Shown here piece after piece: positions 3,002 to 53,937 of a stretch of 64,000 nucleotides of DNA. The position numbers and the translations under genes were made by a program. The first letter of the stretch is position 1. Each line of letters opens with the position of its first letter. The stretch is from a virus (taxonomy: Duplodnaviria > Heunggongvirae > Uroviricota > Caudoviricetes): IMG/VR virus record IMGVR_UViG_2675903278_000002; one strand, given 5' to 3'. Below the pieces are notes generated by a model, which saw only the letters and a program-made list of their open reading frames with translations, had not been told where the DNA came from and did no database searches.

Positions 3002-4075
3002 ATGGCAAAAGGAAAATCCGCACTGGCACTTGCTCTGAAAAAGAAAATCGGTAGCAACGACGAAATTCAGAAAGTAACTCATTGGATTGATACAGGCTTT
3101 CCACCGTTAAACAAAGCTATTTCTGGTCGTTACGATGGCGGCTTCCCATGTGGTCGTATCGTCGAAGTATTCGGTCCTCCAAGTGCAGGGAAAACGTTCC
3201 TTGCAACAGCAGCGATGATCTCCGCTCAAAAACAAGATGGTCTGGCGGTATTCCTCGATCATGAAAACAGTTTTGACGTTGGCCTGGCTGTAGCCAATGG
3301 CCTGAACGCAGATGAGGATGACGGTCAGTGGGTATACAAGCAGCCAGATACCTTCGAAGACTCTGTAGAGTTGATCGGCACAATACTTAAATTGGTTCGT
3401 GATGAAGAGCTTATCCCCGAATCAGCACCTATCTGTATCGTGGCTGACTCTCTTGCGTCTATGGTTCCGAACTCCAAAGCCGAGAAGTTCGAAAAGATGG
3501 CTGAAGGCACTGCCAAAGACAAAGATCAGCTAAACATGAACGACAATACGGCACTGGCTCGTGCGACGAGTGCGAACTTCCCTACTCTGGCTTTGTGGGC
3601 ACGCAAATACAACGCCTGCATCATCTTCTTGAATCAGGTTCGCACAAAAATCGGTGTAATGTTTGGCGACCCTACTACGTCGCCAGGTGGAGATTCACCG
3701 AAGTTCTACGCTTCTGTACGTATCCGTCTTGGTGCATCGGTGATGAAGGATGGTAAAGAGAAGATCGGCCAGGACGTAGGCGCAGAATGCATCAAAAACA
3801 AAGTTGCACCACCGTATGGCAAATGCACCTGGAAATTCTACTTCGATCCTACTCGTGGCCTCGACGTTATCGAATCGCTCGTCGAGTACATGCTGGAAGA
3901 AGGATACCTGCCAAAGAACGCCAGCGGGCGAGTTGAAATTGGTGACAAGAAATACACCAAATCGCAGATCGTTGAGATGTATCGGGAGAAGCCACTGGCT
4001 GAAATCATTGCGGCTTTGCAGGCAATCGACGACCGAAGAGCAAAAGACAACCCCACCGAGTCAGTAGAAGAGTAA
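3002..4075 (+). CDS. RecA/UvsX-like recombinase
   Basis: Walker A GPPSAGKTF, RecA-fold core, 357 aa, acidic C-terminus. Confidence 0.85.
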   Translation: MAKGKSALALALKKKIGSNDEIQKVTHWIDTGFPPLNKAISGRYDGGFPCGRIVEVFGPPSAGKTFLATAAMISAQKQDGLAVFLDHENSFDVGLAVANGLNADEDDGQWVYKQPDTFEDSVELIGTILKLVRDEELIPESAPICIVADSLASMVPNSKAEKFEKMAEGTAKDKDQLNMNDNTALARATSANFPTLALWARKYNACIIFLNQVRTKIGVMFGDPTTSPGGDSPKFYASVRIRLGASVMKDGKEKIGQDVGAECIKNKVAPPYGKCTWKFYFDPTRGLDVIESLVEYMLEEGYLPKNASGRVEIGDKKYTKSQIVEMYREKPLAEIIAALQAIDDRRAKDNPTESVEE

Positions 4076-4080
4076 ACACA

Positions 4081-4106
4081 AGGCGTCCACAGGACGCCTT
4101 TTTTAT
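4081..4106 (+). terminator. Rho-independent terminator after recombinase gene
   Basis: AGGCGTCC-ACAG-GGACGCCT hairpin followed by TTTTTT. Confidence 0.7.
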
Positions 4107-4167
4107 CTCTTGAAAATATATAAGTACTTACTTATTATTTTCGCATAACAACCACATAGGAAAACAC

Positions 4168-4368
4168 ATGATCAAAATCTATCTATTGGCAGTAACCACA
4201 GGCCTTTCAGTGGCTCTCATCTACGGTTTACTGGTTCCGTCGCTGATTTCTACCAAGAGTGATTTAGCCGTCATGTTTGGAGTTATCGTTGGTTTTGGTG
4301 CTCCTGTAATCGGTCTTATTGCTGGTCGTAAGTTTATCAACTCATTAATCAAAGCAAAGGGGAAATAA
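4168..4368 (+). CDS. small membrane protein (2 predicted TM helices)
   Basis: 66 aa, two hydrophobic segments; coupled to downstream SPFH gene (4-nt gap). Confidence 0.5.
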   Translation: MIKIYLLAVTTGLSVALIYGLLVPSLISTKSDLAVMFGVIVGFGAPVIGLIAGRKFINSLIKAKGK

Positions 4369-4371
4369 GTA

Positions 4372-5202
4372 ATGAAGAAAGGTTTACTTGCAGTTGCTCT
4401 GGCGGCTATTTGCACAATGGGTCTTACTGGCTGCGATCGCGTGGAGCCTGGATACGTTGGCATCAAAGTAAACAAATTAGGTGAAGACAAAGGGATTGGT
4501 GAAGTGGTTGGCGTTGGTCGCCAATGGACAGGTCTTAACACCGAACTTTACGTATTCCCGACCTTCAAACAAATGAAGACCTACGACGAGCCGTTCACAT
4601 TCCAGATGAGTGACGGTACTGCTATTGGTCACAAAATTGGCGTTGCGTATCTGGTTAATCGTGACAAGGTAACGACGGTGTTCCAGACCTATCGCAAAGG
4701 CGTAGACGATATCACCGAATCAGATCTGCGTCAGAAAATTGCCGACTCTCTAAACCGTTTGGCCAGCCGTATGACCACTGACTCATTTATCGACGGTGGT
4801 AAGGCACAATTGCTGGACAACGCACTGAAAGATATTCAGAAAGAGATGTCTCCGGTTGGTATTGAGGTACTGAGCCTGTCATGGGTTGGAAAGCCTGATT
4901 ACCCAAAAACTGTCATTGAATCTATTAACGCCAAAGTAACGGCTAACCAGCGTACTCTGCAACGTCAGCAGGAAGTTGAACAACGTAAAGCTGAGGCGAA
5001 TATGCTACGTGAACAGGCTAATGGTGAAGCTGATGCTATCCGTGCTCGTGCGCAAGCAGAAGCAGACGCCATTCGTCTGCGCGGTGAAGCTCTGCGTCAA
5101 AACCCGAACGTTATGGAACTGGAAGCCATCAATAAATGGAATGGCCAGTTACCGCAGTACATGACTCAAGGGGCTAACACTCCTTTCATTACAGTGAAAT
5201 AA
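4372..5202 (+). CDS. SPFH/band-7 (stomatin/prohibitin-like) lipoprotein
   Basis: signal peptide with lipobox (LTGC), SPFH-like core, Ala/Glu/Arg/Gln-rich coiled C-terminal region. Confidence 0.55.
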   Translation: MKKGLLAVALAAICTMGLTGCDRVEPGYVGIKVNKLGEDKGIGEVVGVGRQWTGLNTELYVFPTFKQMKTYDEPFTFQMSDGTAIGHKIGVAYLVNRDKVTTVFQTYRKGVDDITESDLRQKIADSLNRLASRMTTDSFIDGGKAQLLDNALKDIQKEMSPVGIEVLSLSWVGKPDYPKTVIESINAKVTANQRTLQRQQEVEQRKAEANMLREQANGEADAIRARAQAEADAIRLRGEALRQNPNVMELEAINKWNGQLPQYMTQGANTPFITVK

Positions 5203-46598: not shown

Positions 46599-46802
46599 TT
46601 AAATAGAATTTTGAAGTTTTCCGATTAATGCGCTTAAACGTAAGTATTCACGTTTGCGCTTGCAATCTCGCTTGCTGTTGAGCAAATCAGAAAACGTAAA
46701 ATTTAATTGGTCGCGTTGCGCGATCAAATCATCGATTAATTCCAGTTTATAAGCGCGATACTTTGCGCGATATTCCGCGCGGATCTTGTCATAGCTGACC
46801 AT
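46599..46802 (-). CDS. hypothetical small basic protein (low-GC island)
   Basis: 67 aa from ATG at 46802 with RBS AAGGAG (ORF track start 46847). Confidence 0.4.
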   Translation of the reverse strand: MVSYDKIRAEYRAKYRAYKLELIDDLIAQRDQLNFTFSDLLNSKRDCKRKREYLRLSALIGKLQNSI

Positions 46803-46850
46803 TTTTAAAGCTCCTTTAAAGCGCCCACTATGGGCGCTTGATTCCATTAA

Positions 46851-47501: not shown

Positions 47502-47784
47502 GATAATTTTTCCTTATGTAAATTTAAAATTTATTGTCGTTAGCGTCTTCGCTTTCGACGAGTTCAATTATCGATATGCGAAAAAAGATTGCAAGTGTTT
47601 TTTTTAAATTTTTTGCAGGGATGAAAGTCCTAGAAATAAAAGCGAGATCGTCGAAGGTGTTCCCTAAATAAATAATTGATTGCGGCTTTAGACCTTATAT
47701 ATATTTAGGTTATTTGATTTGTAGATATAAAGAAGTGATGTGAAAAATAATAACCGGACTTAGCCGGTTATTAACCTTATAGAT

Positions 47785-48093
47785 TTATTGAACAGACTCT
47801 ACAGCCTTACGATTGGTGTCAAATAGCGCATCAACGAACTGTGCCGATGACTCGCTAGATTCGCAATCCAACATTGCCCGTTCTTCATTTGCCACTTTCT
47901 TACACAGTTCCACATTCTCACCTATCGCTTTTCCTGCTTTTACGGCTGCCGAAAATTGATACATGCAAACTGATACATTCTGAGACGTTGAGCACACGTC
48001 ATTCATCAGCGACTGAATGACAGGCTTATAGTCCATTGCATTTGCCGCAACTGAGCAAAGTAAAAATAATGGTGGTAACAATATCGATTTCAT
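47785..48093 (-). CDS. hypothetical exported Cys-containing protein
   Basis: signal peptide MKSILLPPLFLLCSVAANA; 102 aa. Confidence 0.5.
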   Translation of the reverse strand: MKSILLPPLFLLCSVAANAMDYKPVIQSLMNDVCSTSQNVSVCMYQFSAAVKAGKAIGENVELCKKVANEERAMLDCESSESSAQFVDALFDTNRKAVESVQ

Positions 48094-48096
48094 AAC

Positions 48097-48621
48097 TCAA
48101 AAAGGCAAAATTCGTTCAACCCAATCGAACAAAACAACTATTTTTCTACCGTTCTCGACACGTAGTGTAACCTGACAAGCATCTGCGCCTGCTGACACCC
48201 CCTCAATTTCACGGCCATCCGCCATGTACACCCTTATAGATTTGTTTGCTTTGTAGGCTTGGTTGCAAATTGCAAAAAAATCGCGGCGTGATGGCCGATT
48301 ATCGACATAATCAGGGTGAACTGTTAGTCGACCTTTGAAATCGTGAGCGATACTGTCAACCACACCTGATTCAATTGTACTAATGCGTTCAAGTGGGAGC
48401 CTTATACGATTTTCTTTGTCAAAAGGGGCTGGGCAAAGGTCAACTTTGTTACGAGATGGCATGAGGCCATAAACGTACATGCAAAACGCCTGGCCATCTT
48501 CGAGAGTGACCCTTACAGGAATTTGTTCTCTGCGCCAGAACATCAGTAGTTTTTCAACGTTAGTGTAATCTCGCGGCCAGAGTTCAGCTTGGATACCGTA
48601 GGTAATATCTTTGGTTGTCAT
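48097..48621 (-). CDS. hypothetical protein
   Basis: 174 aa from internal Met chosen to avoid overlap with upstream lipoprotein gene; start uncertain. Confidence 0.4.
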   Translation of the reverse strand: MTTKDITYGIQAELWPRDYTNVEKLLMFWRREQIPVRVTLEDGQAFCMYVYGLMPSRNKVDLCPAPFDKENRIRLPLERISTIESGVVDSIAHDFKGRLTVHPDYVDNRPSRRDFFAICNQAYKANKSIRVYMADGREIEGVSAGADACQVTLRVENGRKIVVLFDWVERILPF

Positions 48622-48625
48622 ATCA

Positions 48626-49048
48626 TCACAGAGTTGTTGGCAGAATGTCGATGTCACCAGAATTGCTGGTAAACACCCTGAACGCTTTTGTGTCTCCATT
48701 CTTCAGAGTCGTTTCTCGCTCTTGACGAGCGGGGTTTAGAGCACATAAACCTGCACCTTCAAGAGATGCACCCACAATTAATTCTCCGGCATTTAAATGG
48801 AAAGTCGCTTTTTCGCCTGTAGCCAGTTTTGCGACAGTTTCGCCGTTGATGAAAATGGAAGCATCACATCCAGCTCCTACAAAACCTGTGTCTCTCATTA
48901 CCACCAACGTAGCTGGCGCTGCGCTTTGATACTTGAACACTTTGGCCTGCGGTGCTGGTTTGGCGTCATGGATTGATATTGGGTGTGATTGGCACGCGGC
49001 AAGCATCAACACTGGTAACGTTAGTAGAGGGAGAAGCGAGTATTTCAT
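48626..49048 (-). CDS. hypothetical lipoprotein
   Basis: signal peptide with lipobox (LMLAAC) from Met at 49048; 140 aa. Confidence 0.5.
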   Translation of the reverse strand: MKYSLLPLLTLPVLMLAACQSHPISIHDAKPAPQAKVFKYQSAAPATLVVMRDTGFVGAGCDASIFINGETVAKLATGEKATFHLNAGELIVGASLEGAGLCALNPARQERETTLKNGDTKAFRVFTSNSGDIDILPTTL

Positions 49049-49116
49049 GATAGTTTTAGAACAGAAAGTGAACAGTATGGGAGACTTCATCTTTGTCTCC
49101 CTAATTGATAGCGTGA

Positions 49117-49395
49117 TTATTTTAATCTGCTTAATAGCGTTTCGAGATCTTCCTTTGTCATATTAGAGTTCTCATAGATACGCATGATTTTCTCACGAGT
49201 CTTAGCGGAAGCCCCGACAGAAGATATAACCTTGTCAAAGTCGGCCATTGTCAATTGTTCCAGAATGGTATTTATGACTTCAGCCTTAGACATTTTGATA
49301 TTTTTTTCTTTTAGTTTCACTTGAAACTTTCCAAGTTTGTCATTGGCCTTATCAGACAATGCTACCTGACAGTAAGTTGTTTTCTTTTCACTCAT
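49117..49395 (-). CDS. hypothetical protein
   Basis: 92-aa ORF directly downstream of the helicase gene on the minus strand. Confidence 0.45.
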   Translation of the reverse strand: MSEKKTTYCQVALSDKANDKLGKFQVKLKEKNIKMSKAEVINTILEQLTMADFDKVISSVGASAKTREKIMRIYENSNMTKEDLETLLSRLK

Positions 49396-49397
49396 AA

Positions 49398-50957
49398 CTA
49401 ATCTCGTTTCAGAACTCCAAAATCGAATGCTCCATCAATAGGCAATACACCTTCTGCAAAGCCAGGTGTGGTGTCGATGATGTGTTTTCGCTCATAAGAG
49501 TGAGACAACAGGTATTTGTTGCTAATGTCAATGAAATCAGTGATAAAACACACGTTTGCCTGATTTTTTTTGGCTCGTAAGCCACGACCGACACGCTGCC
49601 TCATTTCAACTTCTGCTTTTCCACCACCAGCCAGAATGACCGCACCAACGCTTGGCACATCAACACCGACATCCAGAATAGTCGAGCCTATTAAAACATC
49701 TATTTCGCCAGACGCTAAACTGTTCAGCTTTGCTTGCCTTGTCGCCTGGTTCGATTCCCCATAGATGAAGTCAACTTTAAGACCTGACTCCTTCATCATC
49801 TCCATCAGGATTTGCCCGTGGCGTTTAAGACGAACCAGAGTCATGCAATTGAGAGAATGTTGCTTATAGAGCAATGCTTCGCGCACAATGGCCTCGTTAC
49901 GTCCCAAATTATACACGATCCCCAACTGATAAGCCTTTTGGTAGGCTGTGCTCATACCTACTCTAAAATTAAGGTGTTTGTTGGCAAGTTCCGCCTTGAT
50001 TCTGACCTCGTCTGGCTTGTAAGCAACTTTATGATAAAGGAAGTACGGTTTTGCCAGAATGCCTCGATCAATCAGGTACTTTTCTGTGACTTTAATTTCA
50101 ATTCGACCGGCCACAGCCATCAGACGCATGTTGGCTTCTGTAGAATCCTTCATGAACGGCGTGGCCGTAAGCGCCAGACGATAGTCTGCGTTCACACATA
50201 ATCTGGCAATGTCATAGAAATTAGAGCCTGAAGACTCATGCGCTTCTTCCAGAATAAGCAGAGACACACTTGAAAGGAAGCGTTTCACCAACTCCCGACG
50301 TTTGAGGTGGTAGCTTTTCTTATCTGGTGTTGCATCGCGTGGTGGTTCTTCGAGGAAACTTGCAAGAGTTTGAACTGTAGCGACGTTGATATGTCGTGAT
50401 ACCTGGAACTCACCCGAGCCAATGACTCCAACCTTTTGGTCTTTTAACCACGGTTCGCCATTTTCGGCGCGGTAGTCGATGGATCTCTGGAAGTTTTCGG
50501 CCATTTGAAACATCAGAACAGAGCGGGTTGTTAAAAATAATGTCATTCGACCGATACGTGCAGCTGCTTTGCAGGCAACGTTAGATTTCCCGCCACCAGT
50601 AGCGATCTGCGCAATCATCATTCCCTCTCGAACCAGTGTTTCCACAGTCTGATCCTGATACGCATAATCAGGATTGTATGGGAATGGGTTAACCGCCGGA
50701 TTTGGTTTACCAAGCGCCGGGGCTTTGTCTTTGCGGATATGAACACATTTGATGCCCGCCTTGTTCAAGTTCGCCGCTACAGGCTTGGCAAAGCCAGCAG
50801 GGAACGAGTTTTTACTCCAGTTGAACATCGTGCTTGTGCCCTTCCAGTCGCCAGTCTCGACTTCGTAGCTCAACATTTGCTGCACCAGTTGCTTTACCTT
50901 GTCATCTGCGCCAGAAATAAGCGCATTTACTGCGTTAGATACAATCCGAACAGTCAT
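49398..50957 (-). CDS. superfamily 2 DNA helicase (UvsW-like by context)
   Basis: Walker A ATGGGKS, DEAH-type box LILEEAH, helicase C motif QRVGRGLR; 519 aa. Confidence 0.7.
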   Translation of the reverse strand: MTVRIVSNAVNALISGADDKVKQLVQQMLSYEVETGDWKGTSTMFNWSKNSFPAGFAKPVAANLNKAGIKCVHIRKDKAPALGKPNPAVNPFPYNPDYAYQDQTVETLVREGMMIAQIATGGGKSNVACKAAARIGRMTLFLTTRSVLMFQMAENFQRSIDYRAENGEPWLKDQKVGVIGSGEFQVSRHINVATVQTLASFLEEPPRDATPDKKSYHLKRRELVKRFLSSVSLLILEEAHESSGSNFYDIARLCVNADYRLALTATPFMKDSTEANMRLMAVAGRIEIKVTEKYLIDRGILAKPYFLYHKVAYKPDEVRIKAELANKHLNFRVGMSTAYQKAYQLGIVYNLGRNEAIVREALLYKQHSLNCMTLVRLKRHGQILMEMMKESGLKVDFIYGESNQATRQAKLNSLASGEIDVLIGSTILDVGVDVPSVGAVILAGGGKAEVEMRQRVGRGLRAKKNQANVCFITDFIDISNKYLLSHSYERKHIIDTTPGFAEGVLPIDGAFDFGVLKRD

Positions 50958-51039
50958 AAACCTCTTTCCTTAGTGCCTTTTGTATGTTATTTGGCTATTA
51001 TAATAAGTAAGTGATTACTTAGTGGATTGTAGCAATAAA

Positions 51040-51720
51040 ATGGATGTAAAAATCACGATTTTGCAGGTTGATGTTGCCAACCTTCGCCCGAATACCTGGA
51101 ACACCAATTCGGTTGGTGCGCAGAATTTTGAAAAACTGAAAGGTTCTATCGAAAAATTGGGCTTTTTTAAGCCAATTTTGGCTCGTGAACTTGAAGATGG
51201 ATTTTTTGAAATCCTCGGCGGTGAACATCGCTGGCGTGCTGCTATTGAGCAAGGAATTTCAACGGTTCCGGTGCTTTCTGTGGGCAAAATTAGCGATGTC
51301 GTAGCTAAACAGATGTCACTGGTGGACAACGAGCGATACGGTGAAGACGACCAAATCGCATTGCAACGCTTCATTGAAGAAATTCAGTCAGAACTTGACT
51401 ATCAACTGTCTGAAATCGCCCCGTATGACGACGAAATCTCGATGGTTTTAGCAAAAGAGGCGGCAATCGACCTTGAAGCACTGGAGGCGTTGTCTCGTGG
51501 TAGTGATGAGCCTGTCGATACCGACAAACGAGAGAAAACCGAACGTGTGGGTGCGGAACATCAGACCATGCGCTTCAAAGTAACTTTCGATGCGTCAGAT
51601 CGTGTTGCAGAAACCATAAAAAACATCATCAAAGAGCAGGCTATTAACACCGGTAATGAAATGGAGAACGCTGGTGAGGCTCTGGTGTGGCTGGTCGACT
51701 ACTACAAGGAGCGTATGTAA
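51040..51720 (+). CDS. ParB/Srx N-terminal-domain protein 1
   Basis: ParB-box-like ILGGEHRWRAA; acidic C-terminus; ORF track start 51022 overlaps a palindromic motif, ATG 51040 preferred. Confidence 0.65.
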   Translation: MDVKITILQVDVANLRPNTWNTNSVGAQNFEKLKGSIEKLGFFKPILARELEDGFFEILGGEHRWRAAIEQGISTVPVLSVGKISDVVAKQMSLVDNERYGEDDQIALQRFIEEIQSELDYQLSEIAPYDDEISMVLAKEAAIDLEALEALSRGSDEPVDTDKREKTERVGAEHQTMRFKVTFDASDRVAETIKNIIKEQAINTGNEMENAGEALVWLVDYYKERM

Positions 51721-52388
51721 TGACCAAAAAGTTTGAAATCGTATATCGCGACCCGGCAGATCTTATTCCCTATGAGATGAATGCCAAAAAGCATGATGAA
51801 CAGCAGATCAGAGATTTGGCCGCAGCCATTAAAAAGCGCGGATTTGACCAGCCAATTACGGTCGATAAGAACGACGTAATTATTACTGGCCACGGCCGCC
51901 GTGAGGCTGCAATTTTTGCTGGACTTGAGCGCGTACCGGTTATTGTTCGTGATGATCTGAGTGATGACGAGGTTCGTGCGAAGCGCCTTGAAGATAACCG
52001 ACTTGCCAGCATTGATTACGATGCAATTAAGCTACAGAAAGAGCTTGAGTCGCTTGTTCTGGACGATATTGAGGTTTTCGGCTTTGAAGAGCGTGAGTTG
52101 AATGTTCTCGTTGGCAGTATGACAGAAGAAATGGACACCGACTCGCTAGTTATCGATCTTGGCGAAGAAACTAAACGACAGAAGGATGAACACACCGAGA
52201 TCAGTCGTGAAGTTGCAGCGGAAGAAGTACGTGTTGTCGACGTATTGGGCTTTAAAACGCTCCCTGCTGGCTCTGCCATTGTTGTTGGTGATTTGCTTGC
52301 CCATATGGAAGAAATGACGGGAGAAAGCGGGGTAGACGCATTTGTGGCATATGCGGAGAAGATCTCTTCCGGGGAGATGGCTGCATGA
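51720..52388 (+). CDS. ParB/Srx N-terminal-domain protein 2
   Basis: ITGHGRREAA motif; ATG overlaps upstream stop (TAATG). Confidence 0.65.
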   Translation: MTKKFEIVYRDPADLIPYEMNAKKHDEQQIRDLAAAIKKRGFDQPITVDKNDVIITGHGRREAAIFAGLERVPVIVRDDLSDDEVRAKRLEDNRLASIDYDAIKLQKELESLVLDDIEVFGFEERELNVLVGSMTEEMDTDSLVIDLGEETKRQKDEHTEISREVAAEEVRVVDVLGFKTLPAGSAIVVGDLLAHMEEMTGESGVDAFVAYAEKISSGEMAA

Positions 52389-53050
52389 GCAAATACATCA
52401 TCAACGTATCGTTTCAGACACGCGTAAATAAAACCACGCGCACGTTGGAAATCGCTGAGTCGTTCGGGCTTGGCCTGGACGAAAAAGAGTGGACGCTTTA
52501 CGACAATCTGGAGCTGGAAGTGAAGCAGGGCGATGTGGTGTACATCACCGGCCAATCCGGTTCCGGCAAATCCGTTGTGCTGCGCGAGTTGCAACGACAG
52601 ATGAAGGATGAAGGGCTGTCTGTAGCCTCCATCGATGATTTTACCTTCGATAATGAGGTTAACGTCATCGATCAGTTGGGCAAAACGACCAGTGATGCGC
52701 TTGGGTTGTTATCTATGGCTGGTCTGAACGATGCATATCTGTTTGTTCGCAAGCCTTCTGAAATGTCAGACGGCCAGAAATATCGTCTCAAGATTGCCAA
52801 ACTGATTGAGTCAGGCGCTAAAGTATGGGCTGCTGACGAGTTCGGCGCTGTTCTCGACCGTGTAACCGCTCAGGTTGTGGCGTCTAACCTCCAGCGTGCC
52901 GCTCGAAAGGTTGGTGCGACGGTAATGGTGGCGACGACTCACGAAGACCTGAAGAACGCGCTGCGCCCTGATATGCAGATCACCAAGCACTACAAAGAAC
53001 GCGTGAAGGTGGAATATCACAATGGTAGTCATGATGAGGTCCATTCATGA
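52385..53050 (+). CDS. standalone ABC-type ATPase
   Basis: Walker A GQSGSGKS, ABC signature-like LSDGQKYRL, Walker B VWAADEFG, H-loop ATTHE; 221 aa, no transmembrane partner nearby. Confidence 0.55.
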   Translation: MSKYIINVSFQTRVNKTTRTLEIAESFGLGLDEKEWTLYDNLELEVKQGDVVYITGQSGSGKSVVLRELQRQMKDEGLSVASIDDFTFDNEVNVIDQLGKTTSDALGLLSMAGLNDAYLFVRKPSEMSDGQKYRLKIAKLIESGAKVWAADEFGAVLDRVTAQVVASNLQRAARKVGATVMVATTHEDLKNALRPDMQITKHYKERVKVEYHNGSHDEVHS

Positions 53051-53937
53051 CGGACATCATCATTAAACGCTACCGCCCTGAAGAGTTTCCGCGTCATCTG
53101 GACTTTCTGGAGCGAATGACTGTTACAAAGGGAACTGTAGAGGACTGGCACGCTCTTAAGTCGCTTCACTACAAAACAGACGGCAAACCTTTCGCGCCAA
53201 CTTACTATCGCTGCGAACTTGATGACCGTCTGGTGGGCGTCGTGGTTATGGCTTACCCGAAACTACTGTTGGCACCTCGCCACCGCATGTTTCCTAAGTT
53301 GAAACCAACCACTAATACCACCGTGGCTAACCAGTACTGGGGTCGGTACGTGAATAACAACTTTGCGGTGATCAGTCGCTCAGTTGTGGATACTCAGTAT
53401 CGTGGCGTAGGCGTCTCTTATAGAATGATTAACCTGGTTAGCAGGATGCATGACCGGCCAATCATTGAGATCCAGTCCTCGATGAGCAAATACAATCCCT
53501 TCGCCATGAAAGCAGGGTTTAAGTTCATCCGCCCTGAGCGACCGAAGAGCTATGAAAGTGCACTGCGTGTGTTCCAGCGCCATTTCCGCTCCGACCCGGG
53601 TGATAACGAGGCGATCGTCAAAGAGTTGTTCGCTATGAGCGAGTCTCGTCGTCGCCGTGCGCTGCGCGATTTGGTGGCGGACTACCATAAGAACAGTTCC
53701 CTGGCAAAAGCTGGGCGGAATCGTGGCACGACGATTCAGGACATTGCCGACAGTCTGGTGGACGAGGCCAGCATTGTGAAGCTGCTCAAGGACATTCACA
53801 ACCTGAGCTTTACGTCTCCGTTGTATGGTGTGTACCGAAACCCTGACTTTGGCCGTCGACTGCCTGACACGCTGCCACTGCTGGCATTCGACAAACAACC
53901 TTTGGATAAACCGTTAGAAATTGCTTTACCGGCATAA
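53047..53937 (+). CDS. hypothetical protein with GNAT acetyltransferase-like core
   Basis: GNAT motif-A-like QYRGVGVSYRMI; 296 aa. Confidence 0.35.
   Translation: MTDIIIKRYRPEEFPRHLDFLERMTVTKGTVEDWHALKSLHYKTDGKPFAPTYYRCELDDRLVGVVVMAYPKLLLAPRHRMFPKLKPTTNTTVANQYWGRYVNNNFAVISRSVVDTQYRGVGVSYRMINLVSRMHDRPIIEIQSSMSKYNPFAMKAGFKFIRPERPKSYESALRVFQRHFRSDPGDNEAIVKELFAMSESRRRRALRDLVADYHKNSSLAKAGRNRGTTIQDIADSLVDEASIVKLLKDIHNLSFTSPLYGVYRNPDFGRRLPDTLPLLAFDKQPLDKPLEIALPA

Follow-up and report, generated by a model that had tools for sequence, protein, structure and literature searches.

The question raised by this locus is what a string of four small genes behind a helicase gene does for the element that carries it. 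The whole stretch of DNA analyzed (64,000 nucleotides, IMG/VR record IMGVR_UViG_2675903278_000002, hereafter the window) is, by its sequence matches, an SSU5/pHCM2/pMT1-type phage-plasmid of Escherichia coli, and the four genes occupy positions 47785-49395. An earlier note, made from the letters alone, had described them as an exported-protein cluster in a replication operon and had assigned them to lysogenic conversion rather than replication. The four minus-strand open reading frames (ORFs), the lipobox LMLAAC, the terminal hairpin, and the shared orientation with the helicase gene are all present where that note had placed them. We arrive, with about even confidence, at the reading that the genes form a cassette for lysogenic conversion, with envelope morons on either side of an orphan repressor that would bind RNA and may act on host fliC.

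The most informative of the four genes is one whose identity the earlier note had missed. It encodes a protein of 174 amino acids (aa) that is a full-length homolog of FljA. The protein matches the Pfam family PF03614 (Flag1_repress) with 282.4 bits against a cut-off of 24 (E 1.5e-84), residues 5-171 being aligned with positions 1-170 of the 170-position profile, and it matches phrog_1444 with an E value of 1.9e-100. In this full-length match and in its size it resembles FljA of Salmonella enterica, the repressor of phase-1 flagellin (about 175 aa). In GenBank, the ortholog in Salmonella phage SSU5 is named "putative repressor of phase 1 flagellin", and many RefSeq records give "transcriptional regulator" or "hypothetical protein" instead. 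Like the fljA gene of the S. Typhi linear plasmid pBSSB1, the 174-aa gene lies on a mobile element. Canonical fljA is located downstream of the flagellin gene fljB and co-expressed with it; the 174-aa gene, in contrast, lies between envelope genes behind a helicase gene.

A degenerate-pattern scan of GTDB genomes revealed chromosomal FljA relatives in Atlantibacter and Franconibacter. The Atlantibacter fljA gene (L014, 5004-5534) is directly downstream of a gene for a 498-aa flagellin (3417-4913), which is the canonical fljB-fljA layout, and this flagellin-linked FljA was used as the comparison protein in place of that of pBSSB1. The protein of the window shares 39% identity with it over 171 aa, along the full length (E 5e-41). 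FljA-type proteins prevent translation of the fliC mRNA, and a plasmid-borne fljA gene turned motile E. coli non-motile (PMC2652032).

The fold of the 174-aa protein should be noted, since it is related to the mode of action. A search of PDB sequences with the FljA family profile found no related solved structure and no Hfq, and the Pfam match to Hfq is below the threshold (19.6 against 27 bits, residues 120-162). However, an AlphaFold2 (AF2) model based on an alignment of 23 sequences, with a predicted local distance difference test score (pLDDT) of 82.4, consists of two successive units of one helix and five strands. The N-terminal helix and the strongly bent five-stranded antiparallel sheet that define the Sm/Hfq-like fold are both observed in the model. 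Its best fold matches in the PDB are Hfq, LSm, and WYL domains, and a fold search of BFVD gave weak, single-domain Sm-like matches only. Sequence similarity between the two halves of the protein is undetectable. The FljA family thus looks like a tandem Sm/Hfq-like RNA-binding protein, as far as the model tells, in agreement with the known post-transcriptional action of FljA. Hfq, Sm, and LSm proteins have one domain and assemble into a hexameric ring, whereas the modeled 174-aa protein contains two Sm-like domains in one chain, and its sequence identity to them is only 13-21%. The N-terminal motif DITYG..AEVWPRDY is highly conserved and disordered in the model. An incomplete literature search found no paper calling FljA Sm-like and none on fljA-like genes in SSU5-type phage-plasmids.

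We call the 174-aa protein an RNA-binding repressor with confidence, and within this call the version that acts on host flagellin has about even odds. The protein is predicted from its sequence to be cytoplasmic, where, by homology, it would bind an mRNA leader and block translation. The most likely target in an E. coli host with flagella would be the fliC leader, so that a lysogen would make no flagellin. Such a loss would leave the cell without motility, H antigen, and TLR5 ligand, and resistant to flagellotropic phages. Any lysogenic conversion mediated by FljA would therefore act through RNA binding in the cytoplasm, not at the envelope.

The string that contains this gene is laid out as follows, read along the minus strand.

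49398-50957, minus strand: DEAD/DEAH (ResIII/UvsW-type) helicase gene, the first gene of the co-oriented string.
49117-49395, minus strand: 92-aa ORF, starting 2 nucleotides (nt) past the helicase stop.
48626-49048, minus strand: 140-aa lipoprotein ORF, 68 nt from the 92-aa ORF.
48097-48621, minus strand: 174-aa FljA-family ORF, 4 nt from the lipoprotein stop.
47785-48093, minus strand: 102-aa ORF, 3 nt from the stop of the 174-aa ORF.
47748-47773, minus strand: intrinsic-terminator-like hairpin (10-bp stem, 6-nt loop, U-run), 11 nt past the last stop, ending the gene string.

With gaps of 2, 68, 4, and 3 nt along the string, the four genes may be co-transcribed with the helicase gene; the label "replication operon" is only an assumption. 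All four genes are real, under purifying selection, and conserved in relatives. Their products match PHROG families with E values from 5e-46 to 2e-100. The ratio of nonsynonymous to synonymous substitution rates (dN/dS) is 0.06-0.11 for the pairs with unsaturated dS; dS is saturated in most inter-lineage comparisons, the ratio being given for some pairs only, and in the other pairs dN is far below the saturated dS.

The hairpin AACCGGCTAAGTCCGGTT (47769-47752) lies inside an extended 10-bp stem (47773-47748) that is followed by UUUUU, and the core of the stem is AACCGGCUAAGUCCGGUU. The calculated folding energy is −12.6 kcal/mol (z = −4.35), and none of 200 shuffled sequences was as stable. 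A near-identical hairpin, with at most one stem base and at most one loop base changed, occurs in seven related elements, right after whichever gene ends the string. Since a generic terminator scan of this 5-kb stretch gave five sites against 4.8 expected, that is, no enrichment, it is the strength, position, and conservation of the hairpin that speak for it.

The four proteins divide into two pairs with respect to export. The highest mean Kyte-Doolittle values over 19 residues are 0.67 for the 92-aa protein and 0.63 for the 174-aa protein, compared with 1.62 and 1.50 for the exported proteins. The proposed "exported-protein cluster" therefore holds for the 140-aa and 102-aa proteins, which have conserved export signals, but not for the other two, which have no hydrophobic segment.

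The 140-aa protein begins with MK, followed by a hydrophobic region at residues 8-17 (Kyte-Doolittle mean 2.46) and LMLAAC, with the lipobox LAAC at residues 16-19. A lipoprotein precursor was defined here by a positively charged N-terminus, a hydrophobic region, the pattern [LVI][ASTVI][GAS]C within about 35 residues, and conservation of the Cys. The protein has all these features, and lipidation at Cys19 is predicted. Cys19 is invariant in 13 of the 13 aligned sequences (12 from databases, some of them fragmentary), in which the lipobox varies as LSAC, ITAC, and LTGC. The profile match is to phrog_890 ("lipoprotein", E 6e-52). The mature part has two more conserved Cys residues and is predicted to be all-beta. 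The residue at +2 is Gln, and across the family it is Gln, Ser, or Phe, never Asp. In E. coli, a residue other than Asp at +2 leads to export to the outer membrane by the Lol system. Since the residue here is Gln, sorting to the outer membrane is predicted. The 140-aa protein would thus leave the cytoplasm through Sec, receive its lipid at Cys19, and reach the outer membrane through Lol.

The start of this gene is ambiguous. An in-frame ATG at 49090, with a strong Shine-Dalgarno sequence (AGGGAG), would give a 154-aa precursor with 14 additional residues (49049-49090), and this start is used by the largest database cluster (P0001, 324 members). The ATG at 49048 is conserved across genera and has no obvious ribosome-binding site here. 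We adopted the 140-aa form, with the ambiguity flagged, because the extension is not conserved in relatives but the MK(Y/H) start is.

Homologs of the lipoprotein were found by tblastn in 421 plasmid records and 60 phage records. The phages include the lambdoid phage mEp390, temperate siphophages of Pseudomonas aeruginosa, and phages of Vibrio anguillarum and Ralstonia. In mEp390, P. aeruginosa vB_Pae_CF183a, and a 54-kb Klebsiella phage-plasmid, the homolog is located between gpK-like and gpI-like tail genes, just before the gpJ-like fiber gene; in a Xanthomonas plasmid, it adjoins a restriction-modification system and insertion sequence (IS) elements. This distribution is typical moron behavior.

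Receptor-masking exclusion lipoproteins of temperate and virulent siphophages, such as Llp of T5 and Cor of phi80, HK022, and N15 are encoded next to receptor-binding genes. The 140-aa protein resembles them as a small phage-encoded lipoprotein with predicted outer-membrane location, and its homologs in mEp390, Pseudomonas phages, and the N15-size Klebsiella phage-plasmid stand beside tail-tip or fiber genes in the same manner. On the other hand, the gene of the window lies behind a helicase gene and not in a tail module, and the mature product is larger (about 121 aa) and predicted to be all-beta, unlike Llp and Cor. The lipoprotein would most likely mask or alter a surface receptor, that is, act in superinfection exclusion of the Llp/Cor type.

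Two other assignments of the lipoprotein were rejected. Membership in DUF2846 (PF11008) scored 18.1 bits against a gathering score of 34.3, with 12-20 bits for three homologs tested, and the sole informative paper on DUF2846 gives no function. An Rz1-like spanin would not be as large or as beta-rich; moreover, no overlapping or adjacent i-spanin gene is present, and the homologs are located in tail modules, not in lysis modules.

The 102-aa protein likewise begins with MK and a hydrophobic region at residues 4-13 (Kyte-Doolittle mean 2.56), followed by an A-N-A cleavage site, as in MKSILLPPLFLLCSVAANA|MDYKP. In homologs with 65-72% identity, the residues of the signal peptide differ, but its pattern and the AxA site are kept, with VSA, ASA, or ANA before MDYKP. 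The protein is predicted to be secreted or periplasmic through this Sec-type signal peptide. It matches phrog_9536, which is 83 residues long, and some databases start the protein at Met20. The longer form is favored because the signal-like N-terminus is conserved. The mature part has four Cys residues, among which C34, C43, and C64 are invariant in the homologs, and the four could form two disulfides in the periplasm. The best guess for this protein would be an envelope-protective or inhibitory moron.

The family is restricted to these phage-plasmids; tblastn gave 259 plasmid records, and only two phage records carry the gene. In many Klebsiella and Salmonella records, no annotated feature lies beneath the tblastn match. 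pHCM2 also encodes, right behind its fljA-like gene, a homolog that is intact and bears a signal peptide (MKAILLSSILLASSTAASAMDYKP...; NZ_CP029901.1, about 4517-4825) but is unannotated in RefSeq.

The position of the 102-aa gene should be noted. It is a precise indel of 311 nt (48098-47788), inserted with exact boundaries between the stop codon of the fljA-like gene and the shared terminator, and in blastn alignments with Cyrano, SSU5, K. pneumoniae NH25, and Y. pestis pFra, the subject coordinates run on unbroken where the gene is missing. In K. pneumoniae TH1, the same position is occupied by a gene for a 99-aa secreted homolog with 30% identity, which also has a signal peptide.

These comparisons depend on the relatives of the element. 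Positions 47600-51000 share 99.7% identity with E. coli plasmid CP059946.1 p2 and match 465 plasmids in PLSDB, nearly all of them non-mobilizable and about 100-115 kb, from Escherichia, Enterobacter, Yersinia, Salmonella, and Citrobacter. Phage matches of the same stretch are Escherichia phage CMS-2020a (98.7%), SSU5 (79%), and phage Cyrano, and Cyrano shares 98.9% identity with positions 1-25000 of the window. These matches are the basis on which the window is assigned to its type.

The order of helicase, 92-aa gene, a slot, fljA-like gene, an optional small secreted protein, terminator, and a 216-aa gene is kept in six relatives, namely SSU5, K. pneumoniae TH1, K. pneumoniae NH25, Y. pestis pFra, S. 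Typhi pHCM2, and a distant Klebsiella element whose FljA is 35% identical. The slot holds the phrog_890 lipoprotein in the window, SSU5, pHCM2, and pFra. In TH1, the phrog_890 lipoprotein is only 29% identical and encoded on the opposite strand; in Cyrano, the slot contains a 199-aa protein and a 266-aa lipoprotein (LTGC|D), also on the opposite strand; and in NH25, it contains three genes, one of which encodes a 118-aa signal-peptide protein and adjoins the fljA-like gene. At least one exported protein was found in every non-empty slot examined. The helicase, 92-aa, and fljA-like genes are thus the lineage core, and the exported genes stand at swap-prone positions.

The fljA-like gene is core in position but not in allele. 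Between the window and Cyrano, the nucleotide identity is 96.4% upstream and 90-92% downstream, but only 77.7% in the fljA-like gene, whose products share 78% of their amino acids. Similarly, TH1 and NH25 share 98.5% and 97.4% identity in the backbone, compared with 69.6% in the fljA-like gene (73% for the proteins). Region 48097-49116, which comprises the fljA-like gene and the preceding slot, therefore looks like an allele-replacement hot spot, which by analogy resembles a phage immunity region. With identities of at least 95%, the three genes of the cassette were found in 97, 87, and 98 PLSDB records, and these similar numbers suggest that they travel as a block. The complete three-gene cassette is present in 89 of 5,426 complete E. 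coli genomes, on plasmids in every case. The 3′ end of the string would accordingly be described as a mosaic accessory cassette around a conserved regulator.

Classic phage morons include lom and bor of lambda and gp15 of HK97. As expected for a moron, the 102-aa gene is found in some genomes and missing from others, its ends being sharply defined by conserved neighbors, and the content of the slot is replaced in Cyrano, TH1, and NH25; the products of both are envelope proteins. Unlike classic morons, however, the insert has no clear promoter of its own, a promoter scan giving only weak matches (9 of 12 consensus positions), and it shares the terminator with the core fljA-like gene, the hairpin being there also where the 102-aa insert is absent.

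Lysogenic conversion or superinfection exclusion by the lipoprotein and the 102-aa protein is reasonable, judging from their signals and their behavior as swap-in accessory genes, and to this extent the proposal of lysogenic conversion rather than replication stands. It does not stand as worded for the other two proteins. In the earlier note, all four were envelope-targeted effectors (exclusion factors, periplasmic inhibitors, and surface modifiers), and cytoplasmic location or homology to replication factors was what would speak against it. Conserved export signals and moron-like behavior in half of the proteins do fit this proposal. Neither a signal peptide nor a membrane segment is present, however, in the 92-aa and 174-aa proteins, which are cytoplasmic by sequence features, the latter as an FljA/Sm-like protein, and their genes are lineage core, not cargo. 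Four envelope effectors are therefore highly improbable, though no replication-factor match was found.

The 92-aa protein matches phrog_1466 (E 5e-46) and has no Pfam or PDB relative. Its gene is directly behind the helicase gene in every relative examined, including a 116-aa version with 35% identity in L019, and the family is small, with 21 cluster representatives in 1.8 billion proteins. The product is predicted to be cytoplasmic, and it would be the core partner in the string. A by-eye assignment to the ribbon-helix-helix (RHH) fold was rejected; no RHH family was found among the Pfam hits listed for 15 members (E ≤ 0.5), and the family profile gave only noise against PDB sequences (E ≥ 0.14). 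A PADLOC defense scan of the four small proteins gave nothing for three of them and only noise for this one (E about 0.006-0.008). A 1,438-aa metagenomic protein, P0142, contains 12 repeats resembling residues 36-84 of the 92-aa protein, and this part may be an independent repeat or interaction module because of these repeats.

The constant position of the 92-aa gene, 2 nt behind the helicase gene, raises the possibility that the whole cluster, or at least this product and perhaps the FljA-like protein, are loaders, adaptors, or nucleic-acid-binding cofactors of the helicase in replication or recombination. Contrarily, searches of Pfam, NCBIfam, PHROGs, and the PDB with the four proteins gave no homology to replication accessory factors already described, translational repression is documented for the FljA family, and exported proteins cannot serve replication. 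We regard a role as helicase accessory factors as very unlikely.

The helicase itself has Pfam matches to ResIII, DEAD, and Helicase_C, and its ortholog in Cyrano is annotated as UvsW helicase. It is conserved in the backbone, with 90-99% amino-acid identity to relatives. Its best PADLOC matches are PbeA (E 5e-23), and it diverges from a plus-strand string (region 49398-53937) encoding two ParB_N-domain proteins, an ABC-type ATPase, and a 296-aa protein. This conserved module may not be a simple partition or replication system.

The target of the FljA-like protein is the point at which the preferred reading, an orphan repressor flanked by envelope morons, meets its strongest rival. The FljA-like protein could instead be an internal regulator of the phage-plasmid, that is, an allele-specific Sm-like translational repressor of the element's own mRNAs, unrelated to host flagella. 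Its targets could be, for example, mRNAs from the adjacent slot, from the helicase string, or from a switch for lysis-lysogeny or copy number. The fljA-like gene was found by tblastn in 831 PLSDB plasmid records, 822 of which cover at least 80% of the query, and these include 341 records from Klebsiella, 229 from Escherichia, 92 from Enterobacter, 62 from Yersinia, and 60 from Salmonella. Klebsiella is classically a non-flagellate host. Unlike canonical FljA, the 174-aa gene is thus conserved in phage-plasmids of a non-flagellate genus and is swapped as an allele.

Several observations weigh against the preferred reading. The fljA-like gene is core in the whole lineage and intact in the 341 Klebsiella records and in Y. 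pestis pMT1/pFra, and because of this conservation in non-flagellate hosts, flagellin cannot be the sole selected target. A tblastn search of the 64-kb window revealed no flagellin gene (best E 0.053), for which reason the FljA is called an orphan, and sequences resembling the E. coli fliC leader occur in the window at chance level only. An element-specific target suits the allele swapping better than a conserved host leader does, and conservation in Klebsiella together with divergence fits an element-internal target at least as well. The flanking genes leave the reading exposed in another respect. In scans of Pfam, NCBIfam, PHROGs, and PADLOC, the lipoprotein showed no resemblance to Llp, to Cor, or to another exclusion protein that is known, and its AF2 model, from a 13-sequence alignment, is too poor for a fold search (pLDDT 47.8). 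The 102-aa protein has no relative in Pfam, NCBIfam, or the PDB and no annotated relative, and an incomplete literature search on these phage-plasmid genes found no paper.

An internal regulator would account for several of these points. The gene remains core and syntenic with the helicase and 92-aa genes even at 35% identity, it is intact in the Klebsiella records and the 62 Yersinia records, it lacks a partner flagellin gene, and it is replaced together with the slot between backbones of 96-98% identity, like phage immunity regions. However, no candidate target RNA was identified for it. In addition, the full-length homology to flagellin-linked FljA, including DITYG..AEVWPRDY, argues for a shared type of target, and most hosts of the lineage (Escherichia, Salmonella, Enterobacter, Citrobacter, and Cronobacter) are flagellated. 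The silencing of E. coli motility by a plasmid-borne fljA (PMC2652032) also speaks for host flagellin. An internal regulator is therefore a tentative alternative that we consider somewhat improbable.

A wider possibility, which seems unlikely, is that FljA proteins are primarily an invention of phage-plasmids, as tandem Sm/Hfq-like repressors of translation that form an RNA-level module for "immunity" or cargo control with allele-specific targets in the element itself, and that the phase-variation FljA of Salmonella is an exapted copy. The FljA module would then travel with the exported-protein slot and be exchanged with it as a block. This would explain why about 830 phage-plasmids, among them those of non-flagellate Klebsiella, have the gene in their core, why it has no flagellin partner, and why it is the most divergent gene in backbones of 96-99% identity.

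Beyond the terminator, two neighboring genes should be mentioned. The ortholog of the 216-aa gene in CP059946.1 (about 2258-2882) appears as two overlapping alignment pieces, is unannotated, and may be disrupted there. A small ORF after the 216-aa gene (46599-46847, minus strand) matches phrog_6145, labeled "MIT family metal ion transporter", and SSU5_119 has the same name. Proteins of this type have 67-82 aa and are hydrophilic and charged, without a membrane segment, and the homologs begin at Met16. The transporter label looks like an annotation error, judging from this composition.

The element is a known one and this accessory region of it is ordinary, some of the genes being already named in records (in SSU5, "putative lipoprotein" and the flagellin repressor mentioned above). 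The lipoprotein and FljA-like genes belong to known kinds, namely phage lipoprotein morons and the FljA family. The question that it leaves, the role of an orphan FljA in a phage-plasmid, is modest and cheaply testable. SSU5/pHCM2/pMT1-type phage-plasmids are common in clinical Enterobacteriaceae. The swap-prone slot is a compact place to seek new superinfection-exclusion factors. Should the orphan FljA act on RNAs of the element itself, it would represent a new type of Sm-domain regulator in phages. If it silences host flagellin, carriage of the phage-plasmid would change motility, H-antigen typing, TLR5 recognition, and sensitivity to flagellotropic phages, a lysogenic conversion that would be easily tested.

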